DNA of 64,000 nucleotides. Source: Candidatus Bathyarchaeia archaeon (lineage in GTDB: Archaea; Thermoproteota; Bathyarchaeia; Bathyarchaeales; Bathycorpusculaceae). The stretch covers positions 1 through 64,000 of the forward strand of contig JAVZIQ010000003.1 of assembly GCA_038871175.1 (NCBI GenBank), given 5' to 3'. The translations under genes and the position numbers were made by a program. Positions within the stretch are counted from its first letter, which is position 1; every line of letters begins with the position of its first letter. This document shows, one piece after another, positions 6,595 through 50,459 of this stretch. Under the pieces are notes generated by a model. It saw nothing but the letters and a program-made list of their open reading frames with translations, had not been told where the DNA came from and made no database searches.

Positions 6595-6672
6595 GCGGCC
6601 GTAGTCTAGCCTGGGCTAGGACATCAGCCTGCCACGCTGACGACCCGGGTTCAAATCCCGGCGGCCGCACCA
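6595..6672 (+). tRNA. tRNA-Gly (GCC), CCA encoded
   Basis: Cloverleaf folded by hand: acceptor GCGGCCG/CGGCCGC, anticodon stem TCAGC/GCTGA with loop CTGCCAC, T arm CCGGG-TTCAAAT-CCCGG, discriminator A plus CCA. Confidence 0.9.
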
Positions 6673-6698
6673 TCGTTTGGACAAAACATCAGCACTTT

Positions 6699-7927
6699 TC
6701 ACTTACGCTTCCTAAACAGTTTTACGCCTTCAACTTCGCATACGTATTCAAACCCGGCTTCAATCAGCTCAGCAGCCTGCTCAACGGTTTTGGCAGCTTT
6801 GCAGACATAAGCGTCTTCAGCGTCGCCGTTTATCAACTGAGTGTAAACAAACGTGTTCTTAATGTTTCTATGGCCCAGCACCTGCATTACATGGAGTATG
6901 TCCTTGGTTTTATGATATTCCATTGTAGCCTTCCAGTGGCGCAAAGTGCGAAACGATATTTTCAGAAGCCTTGAGTTTCCAAGCTTATGGGCAATTCTTT
7001 TACGGTTTCTTTCAAAGGTGCAGCTTAGGCTTCTTAGGCTTCCATAATTGCTGAATATGTTTTCGCCCTTTTTTGGAAGGCTGTTAAGCATGCTGACGAG
7101 TTTGTTTGAGATTTTGAGGATTCTCGGGTTGCTTCCCTTTTCAGGGGTTATTCTCACGGTTTTTGCTTTTGTGTCGATGTCGATCCATTTCAAGTTGAAG
7201 ATTTCGCCCGCTCTGGCGCCGGTTTCCTTTGTAATTTGAAGGAATGTGCAATTTGTTTGTTGCATCCTGCGATGAGGTCGTCGATTTCTCTTTCAAGGGG
7301 AATGAACGGAAGTTTTCTTATGGCCTTGTATCTTGGTTTTTCCCATTTTAAGCCGGCCCATTTTGCAAAGAGGTCGTAGGCGTAAGCTGTTGTTTCTTTG
7401 CCTGAGTCACTCCATTTCTGTGCAGCTATGGCTTCCTTAACGCTTTCTGGGTCTAGCAGGTTTGCTCCAAGCTTTACAAGCCTTCTAAGCCTTGAACCTT
7501 TACCGCGTATTGTTGTGTCTTTGTATCCTTGCTTTTTCATCCACCAGAGGAATTCAAGGAGTTTTCCCTGAAGCTCAGTTTGGCCAGGCTTCACTGTTGC
7601 CCCCGCAGCCCGCTGTTCAGCGTGGGTTTTAACTTCGGTCAAGGCTTGCACCGCCCTCTGGGCGGAGGACGCTGCGCATGATGCCTCATAGCTTCCTTGA
7701 CAATTAGAAGTTAAGCCATCAGCGCAATTTAAAATCTGCCTATCAACTTTTGAGGCATGTTGAAACTTTTCTGAACAGTTGAGATTTTTCTCGGTGAAGC
7801 GGTAACCGCACGTTCTACATAACCAACGTTGAAGGCTTGAGCCGTCTGCCAAATAGCGTAAACCGTCTCTGTAAAGCGTTGTGCCTCCGCATATTGGACA
7901 GGCAAGTGTTTCGGGCTTGGATGCCAC
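6699..7927 (-). pseudogene. Tyrosine recombinase/integrase split by a single-base frameshift near 7246-7248
   Basis: ORF 7190-7927 has an N-terminal Zn ribbon (CPICG...CRTCG) and a core-binding region. ORF 6699-7265 has the catalytic domain (ETGARAGE, LRHWKAT, LGHRNIKNTFVYTQL). The frames switch inside ...LIAGCNKQIA|TFLQITKETG..., consistent with one missing A. Confidence 0.8.
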
Positions 7928-7931
7928 TTGT

Positions 7932-9725
7932 TTAGGCGTCTCCTGTCTGCTGTTTTTCCCATATTTCTTTACAGTCTTCGCATAGCCACAAGCTTTCGCC
8001 TTTGAATGGTTCAGCCTTCCAGCTTGTCAGCTTAGTGTAGCCGCAGACCTCGCATTTGTGCCAGCCGTAAAAGCCGTCGCTCCAGTGGACAGCCTTAAAA
8101 TTCCGCAATTTGTTGATTTTTTCGTTTTCAACTAATTTTGAAGCACTTTCTGTCAAAGAGGCTTTGTTTGTGGTTAAAGAAATATTTGCACACATGCCTG
8201 TTTCGCTCTGGAAGTGTTTAGCGTATAGATCCTCAACGGTGATTTCGCGTTCGCTGATAATGTTTTCTTTAAGCGAGAGGGTGTTGTGTGCAAATATTTT
8301 TTCAGCGCCTTTCAGCCACTCTTTTAGCGTTTCAATGGTGAAAATAGACGAAAACTGCGAATTCAACAAATTGCGGGATTTTTCACCATTATGAATCGCC
8401 TCGTAAAGTTGACGTCTTTTGTCTGCTGGGTCGGGCTTGCTTGTTAAATAGCCTATGCTGCAGAGAAAAGCGGCCCATCTTCTTACGGCGTCGCTTGACT
8501 TCTTTTCCTCTGCTCGACCTTTCCATTTCTCCGTCAACTCTTCAAGGGTGAACTCTTCTTTTTCTTTGGCCAGCGGCTCAACAGCCTCGTGGTAGAATCT
8601 GATTATGTGTCCTGGCGCAGAGGTTTCCGTTGTTTCCCGGATGTTTTGCCACAGCGCCATTACAAAGTCGTAGTCGCGCCGTGTCACCATTATGTAGCGT
8701 TCTTCAATTTCCTTGCATTGACTGGTTGAGGAGTCTTCCGCTGCCTTTTCTGGTTTGATTTTTCTTATTACCAGCGGTCTTTGGGCGAAGTGGAAAAGCG
8801 CGGAGACTTTGACGAGGTTTGTTAGGTGCTTGAAGTCGCGCATTGAGCGTGGCGAGCGGCTTGGGAAAGCCTCGGCGAATTTCATTGCGTATGGGTCCAC
8901 GGCTTTTATTTCGCTTAGGTGGTTTTTTAGAAAGCGTATGTAGCCTTCTAGGAGCATGTAGTCAAAGTCGTTTTGGAAAATCCATGGGTAAGCTGCCTTC
9001 TTGCCTGTTAGGATGTTTGCTGCCTGATACTTTTTCTGGGTCATTTCAGGGGTTATGGTGAAGCCTCTTGTGGCGAGGTCCTGCACGTATTTTTCCTGAG
9101 TGCTGCAGAATATCGTGGCAGGCCAGCCTTGGATTATGACATGTTGCGTTTGCAACTGATCTTTGCCCGACTTGTCCGTAAAGCGATAACTAATTTGGTA
9201 GGCGTCGTGGCTTAGGATTGACCTTAACATGTTGAAGGTTTCAAAGTGCGGCGCTTCTAAGAATACAAGTATTTTGCCGCTTAACTCGACTAGGTAACGA
9301 GTGTCTTTCAGCTTTTGAATCCAAGCTTCTTTCTCTTCTGGCGATGCGTCTTTGTCTGGCTTGTGGGATGGCAGTATTAGGTCTCCATTTTCGTCGATGA
9401 GAATGCCATGTTGATGGATTAACGCGGTTGGGCTTAGTCCACCGAGAAGCCAAACATCGTCTTTTGGAAAATATTTTAGGGCTTGCACTACATTGTAGCT
9501 TTTTCCTATGCTGCTTTCTCCCCGCAAAAACAGGTTTATGGGTTCAGGCGTGTAGGCGCTTAGGGCTGTTAGGAAAACCATGTTTTTTGTTATGATGTCC
9601 CTGCGCACGGTTCGGCTTAAATGCCTAAGGAATTTGCTGTAAAGCCTTGGATCTACGGCGAGCAGGTCTCCAGCCTTGAAGCCTCCGAGCGTTTTGAGTT
9701 CTGCAAGGTTGAAGAGGCTGCTCAT
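7932..9725 (-). CDS. P-loop NTPase with C-terminal zinc ribbon (putative replication/helicase-type protein of the integrated element)
   Basis: Walker A LRGESSIGKS, a hydrophobic strand plus acidic residue ILVFLEAP (Walker B-like), and C-terminal CEVCG...CEDC. The gene ends 5 nt before the integrase start. Confidence 0.55.
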   Translation of the reverse strand: MSSLFNLAELKTLGGFKAGDLLAVDPRLYSKFLRHLSRTVRRDIITKNMVFLTALSAYTPEPINLFLRGESSIGKSYNVVQALKYFPKDDVWLLGGLSPTALIHQHGILIDENGDLILPSHKPDKDASPEEKEAWIQKLKDTRYLVELSGKILVFLEAPHFETFNMLRSILSHDAYQISYRFTDKSGKDQLQTQHVIIQGWPATIFCSTQEKYVQDLATRGFTITPEMTQKKYQAANILTGKKAAYPWIFQNDFDYMLLEGYIRFLKNHLSEIKAVDPYAMKFAEAFPSRSPRSMRDFKHLTNLVKVSALFHFAQRPLVIRKIKPEKAAEDSSTSQCKEIEERYIMVTRRDYDFVMALWQNIRETTETSAPGHIIRFYHEAVEPLAKEKEEFTLEELTEKWKGRAEEKKSSDAVRRWAAFLCSIGYLTSKPDPADKRRQLYEAIHNGEKSRNLLNSQFSSIFTIETLKEWLKGAEKIFAHNTLSLKENIISEREITVEDLYAKHFQSETGMCANISLTTNKASLTESASKLVENEKINKLRNFKAVHWSDGFYGWHKCEVCGYTKLTSWKAEPFKGESLWLCEDCKEIWEKQQTGDA

Positions 9726-9755: not shown

Positions 9756-10082
9756 TTATTGGGTTTTGGCGGTTGTTTGGTTTCGTTTTTTGCGTCCGAC
9801 TGTGGCGCCGTTCTGGAAAACCCAGTAAAACCATCCTTCGCGAGTTAGGCGTCCTCCATGAGCCTGCAAATCCTTAAGCATGGCCTTAAAATCCGAATTG
9901 TCCAAGTCTTCGCTTCTTTGATAAGGTCCTGCTGAGCCTTCTGCCCGCTCCCATTTTATGGCTTCTGGGTCCCAGCCGATTTTGGTTTGTTTAATGAGTT
10001 GTCGTGCGCTTGCTATTCCGGCTTCAACAGCGTTCAAGAATTCTAAAAGCGCTATTGTGGCTGTGTCTTCTTTTTCTGTCAT
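9756..10082 (-). CDS. Hypothetical protein of the integrated element (108 aa)
   Basis: Its ATG overlaps (ATGA) the stop of the restored RHH gene upstream. No motif recognised. Confidence 0.5.
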   Translation of the reverse strand: MTEKEDTATIALLEFLNAVEAGIASARQLIKQTKIGWDPEAIKWERAEGSAGPYQRSEDLDNSDFKAMLKDLQAHGGRLTREGWFYWVFQNGATVGRKKRNQTTAKTQ

Positions 10083-10259
10083 GGCAGGTACGCCTCTTCC
10101 GTGGCGGGTTTTTCCTTGTGTTCGTAGTCTTCTAGGTGTTGGTCTAGGGCTTCGGCTATTTTGCGGTCTATAAGCTCTTTTATGGCTGTTTCTGATGATT
10201 TGTTTAGGTCTTTTAGGAGTTTAATTATTTTTTGGAGTTCTTCAGCGGACAGTATGCGC
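10079..10259 (-). pseudogene. C-terminal part of the IS-interrupted RHH-domain gene
   Basis: Minus-strand frame RILSAEELQKIIKLLKDLNKSSETAIKELIDRKIAEALDQHLEDYEHKEKPATEEAYLP*. It is in frame with ORF 12508-12738 once 10260-12514 is removed. Confidence 0.7.
10253..10259. repeat. Left copy of the 7-bp direct repeat TATGCGC (target-site duplication)
   Basis: Identical heptamer at 12508-12514. The two copies bracket the 2248-bp IS chimera. Confidence 0.65.
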
Positions 10260-10277
10260 GGGGCGATTAAATAATTG
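10260..10277. repeat. IS-B left terminal inverted repeat
   Basis: Exact reverse complement of 11506-11523. Confidence 0.9.
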
Positions 10278-10317
10278 TTTAATGCTTATTTGGGAGGGTC
10301 AGCCTTCCTCGTTTTGA

Positions 10318-11304
10318 TTGTTGATGGAGGCTGGCTCTCCTAAGCTGTTGTTCGATTTGGTGGATTTTAAGCCTATCCGTCATATCTTGTGGGTTGGCCT
10401 TCACGTGGATGGTGCTGGCAGGCCTGTGGTTTATGATCCTGAGTGGGATTTGAGGGCTTTGATGCTAAGGTTGCTTTTGCAGCTTAGATACGTTAAGGAT
10501 TTGGTTAGGCTTTTAAGGCGAAGCGCATATTTTAGAGAAGCCTGCGGCTATAGGGGTAGGGTGTCCAGTGAGGCTCATTTCAGCCAGATGAAGAAGCGCA
10601 TTGGCATGGATGGTTTTAAGGCTGTTGAGGGCTATCTTCGTGGAGAAGCTAATAGACTTAGGGCTAAATATCCTCTTTTGGCTTTAGGCTTGGTTCAGGC
10701 AGCATGCTTTGATGGTACAGACCTTAAAGCTTGGAGCAGCCGAAACCCGAAGGATAATACGCGGGGACTTGGAGATCCAGGGGCTAGGGTTGGAAGGGGC
10801 CCTGAAGGCTTCTATCTGGGCTATAGAAGCCTACCGTTGGGGCATGTTGAGGATTCGGCAAACGTCAACGAGAAAGATCTCGTAGAAAAGGTTTTAGAGG
10901 ATGCTTTAGGCGGCGACTTTGAGGTTGAGTTGGTTGTTGGAGACAGCCAACTAGAGTCTAAAAAGGTATTCCGAAAAGTGGAAAACAGGAAAATAGCCCA
11001 TGTAATTCCATGGAGAAAGCTGAAAGGAAGAACTAACCCTCCAGACGTGCTCACAGTTAAGGATAAAATAAGCGTTGAGGGACCTGAACACTTAAAGGTT
11101 ATATACGGCCGCTTGAGGGCTACTGCTGAAGGCTTTGTTTCCACGCTTAAAACCCAGATTGGCTACGACAACTATACATGGAAAGGCTTAGACAACGCTA
11201 CAATCCACACATGCCTAGCCTTCAGCCTAATCTACGCCGTGACAATAGCAGCAATAAAAATGGGAAAACCGGAAAAAGCAAGAAGCATAACATACTTCAA
11301 ATAG
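10318..11304 (+). CDS. DDE transposase of IS-B
   Basis: Motifs DGTDL, GARVGRG, ANVNEKD, VGDSQ and RATAEGFVSTLK (Y/R..E..K-type region of IS4/IS5 transposases). 328 aa. Confidence 0.8.
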   Translation: MLMEAGSPKLLFDLVDFKPIRHILWVGLHVDGAGRPVVYDPEWDLRALMLRLLLQLRYVKDLVRLLRRSAYFREACGYRGRVSSEAHFSQMKKRIGMDGFKAVEGYLRGEANRLRAKYPLLALGLVQAACFDGTDLKAWSSRNPKDNTRGLGDPGARVGRGPEGFYLGYRSLPLGHVEDSANVNEKDLVEKVLEDALGGDFEVELVVGDSQLESKKVFRKVENRKIAHVIPWRKLKGRTNPPDVLTVKDKISVEGPEHLKVIYGRLRATAEGFVSTLKTQIGYDNYTWKGLDNATIHTCLAFSLIYAVTIAAIKMGKPEKARSITYFK

Positions 11305-11505
11305 CAATAAACCAGGAAAAGGATAAGGCTTAAGCTGAAAATGCTAGCCTAAACCATAAAAGCCAACAGCATTCCAAGGCAAAATTCACACAAACCAGCC
11401 CTAAAAGCCCAATTCTAAACCACAAAACCTGCAGAAACCCACCCTTAAACACCCAATAAACCACTCAAAAACCAAAAATCGAAAACAATCAAACAACCCC
11501 AAAAG

Positions 11506-11523
11506 CAATTATTTAATCGCCCC
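11506..11523. repeat. IS-B right terminal inverted repeat
   Basis: Exact reverse complement of 10260-10277. It supplies the stop codon of the truncated IS-A transposase ORF. Confidence 0.9.
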
Positions 11524-12382
11524 GCTCTAGCTTTGAGGCTTTGAATGCCCTTTCAACAGGCATCCTACGCTTATAAAGCTCAACAAGCCTTTTTTCGCCC
11601 TTAACCCTGAAACGCTTAGTCACGTATAAGCGTATTAATGGCTCCTTAACCTTCGAAGAGTGGGGTATTACTGGTTCAGCTCCATAACTACTTATCGTCT
11701 TGAAGACTTCTTCTGAATAGTATTGGCTGTCTGCTATGAAGTGGCTAATGCCCTTTCCATAACGCTTCAGAAGCTTCGAAGCCCTATCCATTAATGGCCT
11801 AACCGCTACTTTGTCATTTACGTTAGCCGCTCGTACGATGTAGGTTATGGGCAAAGTCTTCATACATACAAGCGTGTGGCTTCTCCATCCAAGCTTGTAA
11901 CTTCGCCTATCAGCCCTGCCAACCCTAGCGCCCCTATCGCTTATTCCGCCCTTCCTACCACGCCTAGAATAAGTCTTCATAAAAGTGCTGTCAGTACTAA
12001 CCATAATTAAATCTGAAGCGTCTATTATGGCCATGTTGAAAGCTTGATTTAGAAAATCGTTGAAGAGCTTCTCAATGTTTTCAGGCCTAGCACGAGTAAT
12101 AAACTTGCTGAAAGTTGAATGGTCTGGAGTTCTATCACCAAACTCGCATATTTCACGGGCATACTGACGCCTCTCAAGCCTCCTGCAAAGCTTCCTAACC
12201 GAAGGAATGGCCTCAAAACGCATAAACATCAAAGCCAACAACATGGAACGCACACTAAAGCGAGGCCTACCACGACCGCTATCAGCGTACTCAGCCTCAA
12301 TAAGGCTTACAGTTACGCTTATATCGATATTGGAGAACAATAACTTGAGGGTGTCAAGGGGTAACCCGAGAAATCGGTTCAA
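11524..12382 (-). pseudogene. IS-A DDE transposase, C-terminally truncated by IS-B
   Basis: TTG start with SD GGAGGTGA. Motifs DSTF, GARVGRAD, ANVNDK, ADSQYY, RMPVERAFKASK. The native sequence stops at ...KASKLE, and the last codons plus stop (RGD*) come from the IS-B repeat. About 50 C-terminal residues are missing relative to IS-B. Confidence 0.8.
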
Positions 12383-12434
12383 ACCAGGTTATCACCTCCA
12401 TTTGGACTTGATTTAATTACCCCTTGACACCCTC
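12347..12434 (-). promoter_or_regulatory. Perfect 15-bp inverted repeat bracketing the SD and TTG start of the IS-A transposase
   Basis: GAGGGTGTCAAGGGG (12347-12361) and CCCCTTGACACCCTC (12420-12434), 58 nt apart. The SD (12392-12399) and the start codon (12380-12382) lie between the arms. Confidence 0.6.
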
Positions 12435-12507
12435 ACCCTATAAACCTTAACTAAACCAAAAACAAACTCTTTTAAAGAAAAAATCTGAAAAAAGATTTTT
12501 CAACACT

Positions 12508-12514
12508 TATGCGC
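12508..12514. repeat. Right copy of the 7-bp direct repeat TATGCGC
   Basis: Identical to 10253-10259. Confidence 0.65.
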
Positions 12515-12738
12515 ATGGTTAAACGGATATGTTCACGCTTCAAACCTTCATATTCGATATTAGAGGTGGGCTGAGGTTGTCCTTTAAGCTTTGCAAGCTC
12601 AGCTTTTAACAGCTCGTTAACAACTTCATTAAGGGTTTTGTTTTGCATTACCACGATAGGTTTAAGCTCGTCAATTATGTCGGCTTCCACCGCGAAGCTT
12701 CGAATGCGTAAAGGGTTATCATACTTACGTGAAGGCAT
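12508..12738 (-). pseudogene. N-terminal part (77 codons) of the IS-interrupted ribbon-helix-helix gene
   Basis: MPSRKYDNPLRIRSFAVEADIIDELKPIVVMQNKTLNEVVNELLKAELAKL has an RHH/CopG-like pattern (beta strand, then two helices). ORF 12472-12738 in the track continues into IS-A sequence after ...LTMRI. Confidence 0.7.
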
Positions 12739-12775: not shown

Positions 12776-12832
12776 CCAACTGAATATGTATGTGAAATTG
12801 AAGGTGCCAAGCTTTTCCGCAAACGTAAATAA
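12776..12832 (+). pseudogene. Relic of a second integrase gene (last 18 codons only)
   Basis: PTEYVCEIEGAKLFRKRK* matches the C-terminus GFEYVCEVEGVKLFRKRK* of integrase 6699-7265, at roughly three-quarters nucleotide identity by eye. It lies convergent to tRNA-Ser, just as the full integrase lies relative to tRNA-Gly. Confidence 0.65.
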
Positions 12833-12870
12833 AATACACAGCGGGGGTTCATTAAAAACAATGTTGAAAG

Positions 12871-12969
12871 CGCCGGGGGTGGGATTTGAACCCACGCGGC
12901 CCAAAGGGCCACAGGCTTCCAAGCATATAGTCTCCAGGCCTGCTCCCTACCTGACTAGGAGACCCCGGC
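12871..12969 (-). tRNA. tRNA-Ser (GGA) with a 14-nt intron at or near position 37/38
   Basis: Acceptor GCCGGGG/CCCCGGC, long variable arm TGGCCCTTTGGGCCGC, T arm GTGGG-TTCAAAT-CCCAC. The anticodon stem CAGGC/GCCTG encloses 21 nt, which is a 7-nt loop CTGGAGA plus 14 extra nt. Confidence 0.8.
12918..12931 (-). other. tRNA-Ser(GGA) intron (ACTATATGCTTGGA in RNA sense)
   Basis: Inferred from the excess length between the two anticodon-stem halves. The exact boundaries are ambiguous by 1 nt, and I could fold only a relaxed BHB. Confidence 0.55.
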
Positions 12970-13716: not shown

Positions 13717-14791
13717 TTAGATCTCGCCGCTTCTCCAGCATTTGGGGTATGTGCCCCGAGGCATTAAAACCCTTCTCGTTTTAGCAACAACTCCATGTTC
13801 CATTTTTAGGATATCCTCTGTTGAGGATTGAGCTGTTGCCAGGGCTACAGCTTCCCCTTTAAGGGTGAAAAGGGCAACAGCTGAACCGGTTTTTATTCCA
13901 GTTTCAATTGATAAAACTCCTGGAGCGGTTAGGTTTGCCCCATGGCATATGGCGTCCACAGCTGAGTCTCTTATGTAAATTTTCGGTACTAGGGCTAAGG
14001 CCTTCTCCATTGGCTTGATGAAACTTTTAAGCTTCACGTCTTCTTTCTTCTCTTGCCATTCCATAAACATGTAAGCCACGTCATGGAGGGTTACAATGTT
14101 TTCATCTTCCACGAAGGGACCAGCTCTTGTTCTTCGAAGCTCCTGCATGTGAGCCCCGCATCCTAGAACTTCGCCTATGTGGTGGCAGAGCATGCGTATG
14201 TATGTTCCCCCTTCACATCCAACCCTGAAAAGCACACTTCGCCTTTCCATCTCTAAGAAATCCAAATAGTATATTTTCCTCGTCCTAAGATGACGTTTAA
14301 CAGAAGCCCTGAGGGGAGGCCTCTGATAAATAGTGTCCTCAAAAATTTTTAAGACTTCCCTAACTCTCTCTTCTTGGATGTCGCCGTGAAGCTTCATTAG
14401 GCAAACGTATTCTTTTCCGCTTAACAGCAGTGCCTGAACAATTTTTCTAGACTCTTCAAGAGTTATAGGCAGAACACCGGTCACGTTGGGATTTCTCCGG
14501 CGTTAAAGCCTCAAGAGTCCCTCCGTGACCTATGCTCTTAAGGTTTAATATGCGTTTAACCCATGCAGCCACTTCGTGGCTTGTTGGGCCTGCAGGCTTG
14601 TCAAGGTTTATGACGCCGTATTTGATGTGTTCAACTGCAGGCCGCTGTTCAGGGGGACACCCATATTTCGGGTCTGTTTCTCCTTCAGCCTTCACAATTA
14701 GCTTACGTTCAATTTCCCATGGAGCAGCACTTCTAGGCAAATATGTGGACACCTCTATGCAAAGGATAAAATGGCTTAAACCTAAAAACAT
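13717..14791 (-). CDS. cbf5: Cbf5 (H/ACA RNP pseudouridine synthase, TruB family), interrupted by a 19-nt BHB intron at 14493-14511
   Basis: Exon 1 ends ...GVINLDKPAGPTSHEVAAWVKRILNLKSIGHGGTL. Exon 2 reads DPNVTGVLPITLEESRKIV...PUA domain. Exon lengths are 280 + 776 nt = 352 codons after removing the 19 nt. The N-terminal start is uncertain (ATG 14791 or an internal GTG). Confidence 0.9.
14493..14511 (-). other. Bulge-helix-bulge intron in the cbf5 pre-mRNA
   Basis: RNA sense: GGGA-CUCU-[UGA]-GGC-UUUAAC-GCC-GGAG-[AAA]-UCCC, extended by an outer helix GGUCACG/CGUGACC. There are two 3-nt bulges on opposite strands, 4 bp apart. Cutting after the second nt of each bulge gives CUUG|AUCCC = L-D-P. 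Confidence 0.85.
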
Positions 14792-36866: not shown

Positions 36867-37228
36867 AGTAGTACTGGCGCTCCAACAAAATATTAAACAA
36901 CAAATATTTTAACCCTATCTCCAAAAATCCCACAACACCTTCAAACAACGTCGCCTGATTGAAGCGGCTCGTATCCTAAAGGAAAATAGACTTAAACGAG
37001 CTTATGACTAAAGGGCCAAGAGTATCAGTGAGGGCTTAACTAAAGTAGACAAGGGAGAAGCCAGCCACTTTTAGTCAAAATTATGCAAGCAAGAAGCTTG
37101 GCCCTAAGAAGAAACCCGCACACCTATTGCCTAAGCGAAAACCTCAATTTAAATTATGGAACCATAAAAACACCCGAAAAAGAAAACGGTCTAAAATAGG
37201 TGCGCAACATTCAAACCCAAAACATAGG

Positions 37229-37313
37229 CGCCGGGAGTGGGATTTGAACCCACGCGGCCCAAACGGGCCACAGGCTCTCAAGGCCTGCGCATTATCCACT
37301 CTGCCATCCCGGC
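37229..37313 (-). tRNA. tRNA-Ser (UGA)
   Basis: Acceptor GCCGGGA/TCCCGGC, anticodon stem CAGGC/GCCTG with loop CTTGAGA, long variable arm TGGCCCGTTTGGGCCGC, T arm GTGGG-TTCAAAT-CCCAC. Confidence 0.88.
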
Positions 37314-49030: not shown

Positions 49031-50139
49031 CTTAAATCAGAACCCATGTTCCTATACTTCCTTTTGTGAAAGCATTTCTTCATGCTTAAACATTGTAGAG
49101 TAATGTGCGCAATGATGACGAATACTTATGGAAAGCTCAAAAACCTTGAATAGACCTCTGAAGTTATAGAGGCTGAATTTGAATGCTTGTGGGATATTTT
49201 GGGCTTCACCTTTTCATTAAGAAGAATGGTTGCTCACGGTTTATCCAAACTATGGGGCTCAAGCCCTATCTTAAATTGGAGAGACGCTTTTCTCGAAGGG
49301 AAAACAGACACTAGGCAAGCTGAAAGGAAATCTGAAAGTAAATTAATAAACTGAAAGCTCGCAATAAGGAGTAACCTAAGCTGAAGGAATGAGCCAGAAT
49401 GCCCATTGTTATAGTTAGGATTCCTAAGAAAATGACCAAAAAGTGGGTGCTGAGACATAAGAAGGATGGAATTGACTAATATAATATTTCCATATTTTTG
49501 AAATTTCAGTATCAGTTGCGGAATTTTGAATTGACGCCTGAAAACCTTCTTTTATTCACTATGCGTTTTCAGAAGCATGAAGGACAGCCTATGAAGGCGA
49601 GTTTGTGGGTGAGGGAAAGAAAAATTAATGATTTAGTGTAACTAATACTAATAAGGGCGCATGCAGAATCATTATAAAGGAAAAGGCCATGCAGAATCTA
49701 GTTGAAGCAAGGATAGATGTGAATCAGAAAATTACTAAAGGTGAAAAACTACCTGAGGAGATGATCCTCTACGCGGTGGACTCGGAACATTTTGTGATAG
49801 CAGCTAGACCCCTAAATAACTTGGAGGAGAAAGCCCTTTTAAAAATGAACGTTAAAGTGGTTAGTGAAAAAAGCACGTCATCATAATCCCACAAAAAATA
49901 TACAATTTCTATCAACTTGACGAAAACGACTATACTATTATGACCTCAGAGAAAGACCCAACAACAATCATAATAGCAATCTAACAGTAAAGGATGACGA
50001 CACTAAGAGTGATAAAATGTCTTCTTGCACCCCTAGGTAAGAATTTCTTTATGTCAATTTTCTCCAGCTAAATATACCCTTGCCCCAACCGTTAAACGCA
50101 TAAACATCAAAGCAGTCATTGGCGCTTCGCTTCTTAGAT

Positions 50140-50459
50140 GAAGATACTAAAATTCTCAGTCGCGAAAAATTTTGTGATGCAAGCCAAAAGCATTGAAAAA
50201 ACAGGATAGCGCGGTTCCCTTATCACTATTAGCCTACTCGGCCTGATAGGGCTCACACCCAAATCTATTTCAATATTGAGAGAACAATAACTTGAAGGTG
50301 CCGAGCGATAGTCGCATAAATTTGTCTGAAAGGTTTATCACCTTCGTTCGGGCTTGATTCAACTATCCCTTGACACCCTCACCCTATAAACATAACAAGC
50401 AAAAATCTTTATTTCAAAGAAGAAGCCTAAAAAGAATTATTCCACATTTATGCGCCTAT
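50140..50459 (-). mobile_element. Degenerate relic of an IS-A-type element (outer end plus the first ~60 transposase codons)
   Basis: Collinear with 12200-12514, including CCCTTGACACCCTCACCCTATAAAC (identical 25-mer) and the terminal ...CA(C/T)TTATGCGC. The reading frame MRLSLGTFKLLFSQY*...RYPVFSMLLAC is broken. The inner boundary is approximate. Confidence 0.65.

Follow-up and report, generated by a model that had tools for sequence, protein, structure and literature searches.

Two Insertion Sequences at a Shared GC-Alternating Site Probably Underlie an Apparent Single Insertion in a tRNA-Linked Element of Bathyarchaeia

Introduction

A stretch of 64,000 nucleotides from a Candidatus Bathyarchaeia archaeon (assembly GCA_038871175.1, contig JAVZIQ010000003.1, positions 1 to 64,000; hereafter the window) carries a 2.25-kb block of insertion sequence (IS) DNA at the 5' end of an operon belonging to a decaying, tRNA-Gly-linked element. 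The heptamer TATGCGC stands at both edges of this block (10253-10259 and 12508-12514). When 10259 is joined to 12515, a 405-nt minus-strand open reading frame (ORF) results, which comprises 134 codons and a stop, has zero internal stops, and ends in a TGA that overlaps the ATG of a following gene for a 108-amino-acid protein (ATGA, 10079-10082). These observations, all confirmed here, had led to the original prediction that a single 2248-bp unit inserted into an intact ribbon-helix-helix (RHH) gene with a 7-bp target duplication; the stop/start coupling is also conserved in relatives of the element. The locus therefore raises the question of whether one insertion into one gene produced this arrangement. 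Full-length copies of the ISs and syntenic relatives of the element reveal instead two ISs, a 4-bp flank, and a chimeric restored ORF, which calls for caution in annotation, as a repeat at the edges together with an in-frame join gave the impression that one element had neatly inserted into a gene.

Results and Discussion

Composition of the Insertion Sequence Block

The block is composed of two unrelated IS5/IS1182-like elements, labeled here IS1-type and IS2-type (coordinates in Table 1), whose transposases are 28% identical. The IS1-type element is bounded by GGGGCGATTAAATAATTG on the left (10260-10277) and by the complement of this sequence on the right (11506-11523), a repeat that is perfect over 18 bp and 96% over 23 bp, and its transposase ORF (10318/10324-11304, plus strand) contains the domains DUF772 (2.9e-6) and DDE_Tnp_1 (6.2e-6), both above gathering scores. 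Full-length IS1-type copies elsewhere measure 1270-1271 bp; the window transposase lacks eight conserved residues (gap LLIDMEGx) that are present in its relatives of 333-335 amino acids. Another incomplete IS1-type copy was observed in locus L027 (11711-12501), where the element is broken after about 790 bp and followed by GCGCGCGCGCG, so this truncation ends at a GC tract.

The IS2-type element retains positions 1-988 of approximately 1196. Its lost 3' part of about 208 bp comprises 46 codons as well as the 3' inverted repeat and was not found on the far side of IS1. Its homology stops at ...AAGCTAGAGC, right against the IS1 inverted repeat, and its transposase ORF (12382-11513; 289 of 335 codons) runs into that repeat, with DUF772 (5e-16) and DDE_Tnp_1 (1.6e-15) again above gathering scores. 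Full-length IS2-type relatives measure 1193-1197 bp and encode transposases of 335 amino acids, the closest being 82-90% identical, between inverted repeats of at least 29 bp (ATAAGTGTTGA.../...TCAACACTTAT; over a longer stretch, ATAAGTGTTGAAAAATTC... and ...GAATTTTTCAACACTTAT). What had been read as one insertion thus comprises two ISs, one of which is truncated at their junction.

A search for contigs encoding the IS2 ORF as translated from its TTG start found none. Among species-representative genome contigs, one contained a 21-mer taken from the IS2 5' region; it belongs to a Clostridia metagenome-assembled genome (MAG), and the match is probably spurious, with about 0.3 matches expected by chance. 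A perfect 19-bp inverted repeat (12346-12364/12417-12435) brackets the IS2 transposase start codon (12382), and may form a hairpin sequestering the transposase start in read-through transcripts.

The Edge Repeat and the GC-Alternating Flanks

Comparison of termini also divides the heptamer into parts. The TAT at 12508-12510 is IS2 sequence, the terminus of the element, because every full-length IS2-type copy ends ...CAACACTTAT followed by (GC)n; the TAT at 10253-10255 is the Ile codon of the interrupted gene. On this comparison, the apparent 7-bp repeat is evidently a 4-bp GCGC flank extended by 3 bp (TAT) of different origin on each side, and the proposed 7-bp duplication does not hold, as three of its bases belong to the IS2 inverted repeat and the other four, GCGC, are what characteristically flanks copies of both IS families everywhere. 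TATGCGC occurs four times on the plus strand of the window, and one of the extra copies (50449-50455) likewise abuts a degraded IS2-type end. This 5' fragment (50094-50455, minus strand; about 72% identical to 12232-12514) lies approximately 1.1 kb downstream of a tRNA-Ala and ends in ...CACATTTAT followed by GCGC, an end-plus-flank as at 12510/12511.

Both IS types are flanked by (GC)n at 8 of 8 distinct insertion sites seen outside the window (L034, L035, L037/38, L045, L048; L040, L044, L051). The IS2-type copies checked for termini were L034, L035, L037/38, L039, and L045-L050, in which the opposite end is the mirror image. Single IS ends in L027, L041, and L043 also bear (GC)n, and so do the outer junctions in the window, where the GCGC flanks bound the pair and not each IS. 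For IS1-type copies, the flanks measure 6/6 nt in L040, 6/5 in L044, 8 in L041, 8 in L043, 10 in L027, and 7/7 in the more distant L051. Contig L042 starts with an IS2 3' end, GCGCGC, and an IS1 5' end, an order which indicates that tandem occupation of one GC tract by both lineages occurs elsewhere. The GC tracts at all these copies suggest a shared, strict target preference of both lineages. It was also observed that GC-alternating tracts span 4-10 nt in every copy examined, covering the two IS lineages and the distant IS1-like one.

Since tract length is variable and no repeat extends beyond the tract, the duplication must fall inside it, and since the tract is palindromic, the duplication length of each IS is not readable from the flanks. 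The flanks in L044 (TTGCGCGC on one side, GCGCGGAA on the other) permit a 2- or 4-bp duplication only, and the window permits at most 4 bp. The inferred ancestral site in the window, ATGCGCAT, is an 8-bp palindrome that is unique in the 64 kb, where GCGCGC occurs once and GCGC 89 times. Searches among the fetched loci for empty sites of any IS copy found none. Three other readings of the repeat were considered. A TATGCGC wholly internal to the ISs was ruled out by the varying length of the GC tract and by the single tract shared by two ISs in L042; a 6-bp duplication at the window site was ruled out, as ATGCGC and GCGCAT do not form a direct repeat; and a 2-bp duplication is less likely, as it would break the frame and strip the small gene described below of its start codon.

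Origin of the Reopened Reading Frame

The joined ORF encodes MPSRKYDNPL...REHIRLTMRILSAEELQK...EEAYLP. The in-frame join without internal stops, together with the coupled stop/start, had been considered hard to explain by chance, and a check that no other deletion boundary gives an open frame had been suggested. The join and its frame are real, but when the boundaries are shifted by up to 30 nt to either side, 1150 of the 3721 resulting pairs (31%) are open as well, so that the open frame by itself is weak evidence against chance.

An exhaustive HMMER search with the 134-amino-acid query against 1.84 billion representative proteins returned nine matches, which divide exactly at residue 75-77; no homologue spanning both halves was found among these representatives or among 5.8 billion clusters. 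Residues 77-134 match proteins of 62-71 amino acids from their residue 2 (P0002 with 76% identity, P0006, P0008, and P0009), and these homologues begin MILSAEEL, LIVSAEEL, or MILDVEDV. Residues 3-80 match P0003 (162 amino acids), P0004 (159), and P0007 (187), which continue with an unrelated C-terminal domain of about 85 amino acids; P0005 (102) aligns as far as residue 95, yet matches the family of the N-terminal half and not the small protein. The C-terminal domain of this RHH-like family is absent from the whole window, and neither it nor homologues of the genes adjoining the RHH homologue in L002 were found in the window or in any of the loci. A word-indexed protein search with the joined ORF recovered only the present-day 88-amino-acid ORF of the window itself (P0001), a search for contigs encoding P0001 found none, and scans of viral contigs with the joined 24-mer, the RHH-like family, and the 597-amino-acid protein encoded nearby gave no match.

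Relatives of the element were collected by a metagenome scan with this neighboring 597-amino-acid protein as anchor, which yielded 30 syntenic loci. In 10 of the 30, a small gene corresponding to the C-terminal half of the joined ORF lies upstream of the homologue of the 108-amino-acid gene, as a stand-alone ORF wherever its start is visible. These small ORFs (L001, L005, L006, L007, L012, L016, L019, L026, L030, and L031) are 70-97% identical to the small gene of the window, and those with their 5' end inside the locus all begin M-I/T-L/G-S-A-E-E-L. They end directly at, or overlap with, the first codon of the 108-amino-acid homologue, as ATGA in L001 and L005, and a separate RHH gene of 58-62 amino acids precedes the small gene in at least four relatives (L001, L005, L012, and L031). 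No homologue of the N-terminal part of the window ORF was found in the 30 syntenic loci, and it is from the junction onward that the DNA is homologous to that of the relatives.

The 134-codon ORF is accordingly not the intact RHH gene that had been proposed, since its halves match different proteins and the small gene is separate in 10 syntenic relatives. As judged from its sequence relatives, it combines a truncated RHH-like gene with a complete small gene in a fusion specific to this lineage, because a spanning homologue is lacking in the searched databases, the small gene stands alone in relatives, and the C-terminal domain of the family is absent. An RHH fold of the N-terminal part, also part of the original prediction, is weakly supported: residues 1-53 had no Pfam RHH match at E <= 1, profile matches in PDB to ParG and VapB had E > 1, and an hhalign comparison with RHH_1-type genes from related elements reached a probability of 35% (E 3.9e-4) with 48 columns aligned in register. 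The AlphaFold model of the joined protein, of low confidence (predicted local distance difference test, pLDDT, 52), places helices at 19-31 and 36-51, in the expected places, with no strand.

In seven other relatives (L003, L004, L008, L015, L021, L023, and L027), the slot of the small gene is occupied by an unrelated protein of 91-99 amino acids (mostly 94). With the exception of L004, only the C-terminal tail ...STEGAW(T/M)P is shared, and it reaches into the start of the following gene. Upstream of the 108-amino-acid gene, the relatives are mosaic, a pattern that points to exchange at exactly this position.

The Ancestral Site

On the minus strand, the IS2-side flank reads ...CAT ATC CGT TTA ACC ATG CGC up to the junction (sequence AACCATGCGC), and the IS1-side flank continues GCGC ATA CTG TCC GCT GAA GAA (sequence GCGCATACTGTCC...). 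In the relatives, the small gene starts ...GGTGAAAAACC ATG AT(A/C) CTG TCC GCT GAA GAA..., with AACCATG at the start and AAAC ATG in a few. The 10 nt beside IS2 therefore equal the expected start region of the small gene, whose ATG now lies beyond the IS block, and the joined sequence, set against the relatives, has just one codon more (CGC). GC flanks are constant in both ISs, so GCGC on each side is no proof of a single target. It is nevertheless accepted, from the match in sequence, that the block appears to interrupt one ancestral sequence, because the IS2-side flank is the small gene's own start context. The part of the original prediction that treats the block as an insertion, whose removal with one copy of the repeat reopens the frame, is in this sense retained, without the single unit. 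The IS-free allele as reconstructed would contain the 26-mer CGTTTAACCATGCGCATACTGTCCGC and read ...CGTTTAACCATGCGCATACTGTCC....

The joint between the two fused genes would lie at about 12518-12520, between ...CGTTTAAC and CATG.... The window shares CGTTTAAC with the RHH homologue in L002 and AACCATG with the start of the small gene, which indicates a microhomology of 3-4 nt at the joint.

Proposed History and Rival Explanations

The whole history favored here, an older fusion followed by two ISs in one ATGCGCAT site and a deletion adjacent to IS1, is considered reasonably probable. Before the arrival of the ISs, recombination or deletion would have swapped the upstream region of the small gene for the first approximately 74 codons of an unrelated RHH-like gene, with the joint at the microhomology (AAC/AACC) and, by luck, in frame, giving the lineage-specific 134-codon ORF (...RLT-MRILSAEEL...). 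Two distantly related ISs would then have entered the same palindrome, which spans the start codon of the small gene, each duplicating GCGC. A deletion adjacent to the IS1 end, through intramolecular transposition, would have removed the last 208 bp or so of IS2 together with the middle GCGC, with GCGC-IS1-IS2(truncated)-GCGC as the outcome. An alternative route, which like the first requires no coincidence of boundaries, is that IS1 inserted inside IS2 and its outer end then attacked the GCGC flanking IS2. As a consequence, the RHH-like ORF would now end after 12 IS-encoded codons and the small gene would be without its ATG; both transposases appear defective, so excision would not be expected.

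Nested and tandem IS insertions with IS-mediated adjacent deletion belong to general IS biology. The window resembles such cases in that an IS with complete ends abuts a truncated second IS, the truncation starting exactly at the intact terminus. It differs from the usual ones in that two lineages have a common target, so that the composite looks like one insertion with a target duplication.

Several points weigh against this history. The IS ends and the flank signature are observed, whereas the order of events and the adjacent deletion are what we infer. The relatives have ATG ATA and not ATG CGC ATA, so the GCGC hangs on a lineage-specific extra codon. The fusion joint lies only about 8-10 nt from the IS target, a coincidence of approximately 1/17 given 17 GCGC sites in the reconstructed element. 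Most IS copies elsewhere have 6/6-nt tracts, from which the duplication could be 6 bp, and the tract in the window has only 4 nt. Finally, the contig comes from a short-read MAG, and IS repeats are prone to misassembly.

The same structure could have arisen if the block had joined unrelated segments, with IS2 lying in the RHH gene of another element, perhaps the one whose remnant lies beside the tRNA at 12871-12969, IS1 at the start of the small gene, and a deletion fusing the flanks; the open frame would then be a one-in-three accident and a 134-codon ORF would never have existed. The constant GC flanks, which deprive GCGC of value on its own, and the 31% of arbitrary joins that are open both speak for this explanation. 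Synteny with the 30 relatives ends at the block, IS1 is without its own duplication, IS2 is truncated at IS1, and an integrase remnant and a tRNA on the right indicate a second element; the TTAACC A.G of the flank also resembles the TTAACG AGG of the L002 RHH homologue. However, the AACCAT that precedes GCGC on the RHH side matches the sequence around the small-gene start in relatives, at a chance of about 2e-4 to 1e-3, and the left flank needs GCGC directly before ATA, so that the start region must have read ...ATGCGCATA, exactly what the right flank supplies. The joining of unrelated segments, though the main rival, is thus regarded as unlikely. A misassembly, with a false join of the MAG contig within repeated IS DNA and flanks that are not contiguous in the organism, is far less probable. 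IS copies do form separate contigs of 1.1-1.4 kb in many metagenomes, and L045 and L046 have one flank in common while the other differs; but the IS1/IS2 junction is unique sequence and no shared repeat itself, the outer flanks fit as one site (AACCATGCGCATACTG), and the gene models of the NCBI record cover the same arrangement.

The least credible explanation is the one first put forward, that one chimeric unit of 2248 bp transposed once into a bona fide RHH gene of 134 amino acids with duplication of TATGCGC. The heptamer at both boundaries and the in-frame join speak for it, yet the outer ends are unrelated (GGGGCGATTAAAT... and ATAAGTGTTGAAA...), so no single transposase would recognize both; the TAT at 12508-12510 lies within the IS2 inverted repeat in every copy; and the database searches for an uninterrupted gene of this length returned zero homologues spanning both halves.

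Relationship of the Two Insertion Sequence Lineages

Both lineages resemble IS5/IS1182-type ISs in their DUF772 and DDE_Tnp_1 domains, length of 1.2-1.3 kb, terminal inverted repeats of 18-30 bp, and palindromic targets with a short palindromic flank on each side. IS5 itself makes a 4-bp duplication of YTAR. Unlike these ISs, both transposases fall far under every NCBIfam cut-off (for the full-length P0012, IS1182 107 bits against 270 and IS5_4 59 against 140, with lower values for the IS1-type), and the target is a GC-alternating tract. Within the IS1182 family, some members, IS1272 among them, are reported to insert at palindromes or stem-loops (PMC5678879, citing Siguier et al.). No description of a GC-alternating target preference was found in the literature.

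Both lineages are widespread in Bathyarchaeia and in hot-spring and sediment metagenomes. It is conceivable, though rather doubtful, that they form an undescribed archaeal branch of IS5/IS1182 strict for GCGC/GCGCGC and, separately, that the fusion of the RHH-like gene and the small gene is functional, linking a regulator to the small protein, which directly follows an RHH gene in several related elements. If so, the shared specificity would pile both ISs at the same rare sites and generate pseudo-single insertions. The by-products of the analysis are this common (GC)n target of two abundant archaeal IS lineages, which is the most notable one, and the 30 related elements with unassigned core genes.

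Genomic Context

Table 1. Coordinates of the annotated features at the interrupted locus and in the adjoining part of the element.
Feature	Coordinates	Strand	Remarks
Tyrosine-recombinase integrase	6699..7927	-	Two overlapping ORFs, 245 and 188 amino acids
597-amino-acid core gene	7932..9725	-	P-loop-like (Walker-A-like) GESSIGKS motif; C-terminal Cys cluster
108-amino-acid gene	9756..10082	-	ATGA-coupled to small gene; conserved in 20+ related elements
Headless small gene, joined-ORF codons 77-134 + stop	10079..10255	-	Homologue of stand-alone genes of 58-75 amino acids
Left GCGC, copy of 4-bp flank repeat (putative target-site duplication)	10256..10259	.	Abuts IS1-type 5' end
IS1-type insertion sequence, 1264 bp	10260..11523	+	Perfect 18-bp terminal inverted repeats; DUF772 + DDE_Tnp_1
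IS2-type insertion sequence, truncated	11524..12510	-	5' inverted repeat ATAAGTGTTGAAAAATC... ending at 12510
Right GCGC, copy of 4-bp flank repeat	12511..12514	.	Abuts IS2-type 5' end; G12514 doubles as the G of ATG
RHH-like gene, N-terminal 74-75 codons, then AACC AT(G)	12515..12738	-	Family usually 159-187 amino acids
Present-day 88-amino-acid ORF (P0001)	12472..12738	-	76 native codons + 12 codons from the IS2 end

The locus is the 5' end of an operon with the order RHH gene, small gene, 108-amino-acid gene, 597-amino-acid gene, and integrase (Table 1). The 597-amino-acid, 108-amino-acid, and small proteins have no match to a Pfam or NCBIfam family. The 597-amino-acid protein is 76-94% identical in approximately 25 metagenome contigs (relatives L003-L032) and marks an uncharacterized family of tRNA-integrating archaeal elements. 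The integrase lies 27 nt from a tRNA-Gly (6595-6672) and is XerA-like (1.5e-17, below cut-off); its split into two ORFs probably reflects a frameshifted pseudogene, with a single ORF of 395 amino acids in L005. A search for a direct repeat of the tRNA 3' end (attR) found none, and related elements adjoin tRNA-Arg, tRNA-Pro, and tRNA-Ser.

The element resembles tRNA-integrated archaeal elements with tyrosine recombinases in that the integrase adjoins a tRNA and small coupled genes led by an RHH gene occur in L005, L012, and L001. It is unlike them in its core genes without family, its frameshifted integrase with no attR repeat, and its RHH-like gene, which is non-orthologous, truncated, and joined with the small gene in one frame. 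Defunct mobile elements abound in this region, in which ordinary IS biology has acted on a decaying element of Bathyarchaeia.

To the right of the block, a remnant of a second integrase was observed at 12781-12834 (plus strand; 18 codons, EYVCEIEGAKLFRKRK followed by a stop), in inverted orientation and with 74% DNA identity to 6697-6750. An intron-containing tRNA of 99 nt (12871-12969, minus strand), which Rfam finds and ARAGORN misses, lies 36 nt from this remnant, and its 3' half is 93% identical to the tRNA-Ser(TGA) at 37227-37313. From their sequence and proximity, the remnant and the tRNA look like the leftover of a second integrated element. A Cbf5/TruB-like pseudouridine synthase (13717-14791, minus strand) is encoded in two ORFs of 111 amino acids (DKCLD) and 255 amino acids (TruB/PUA) with an overlap of 29 nt, which could mean a frameshift, an error in sequencing, or a gene that is truly split.

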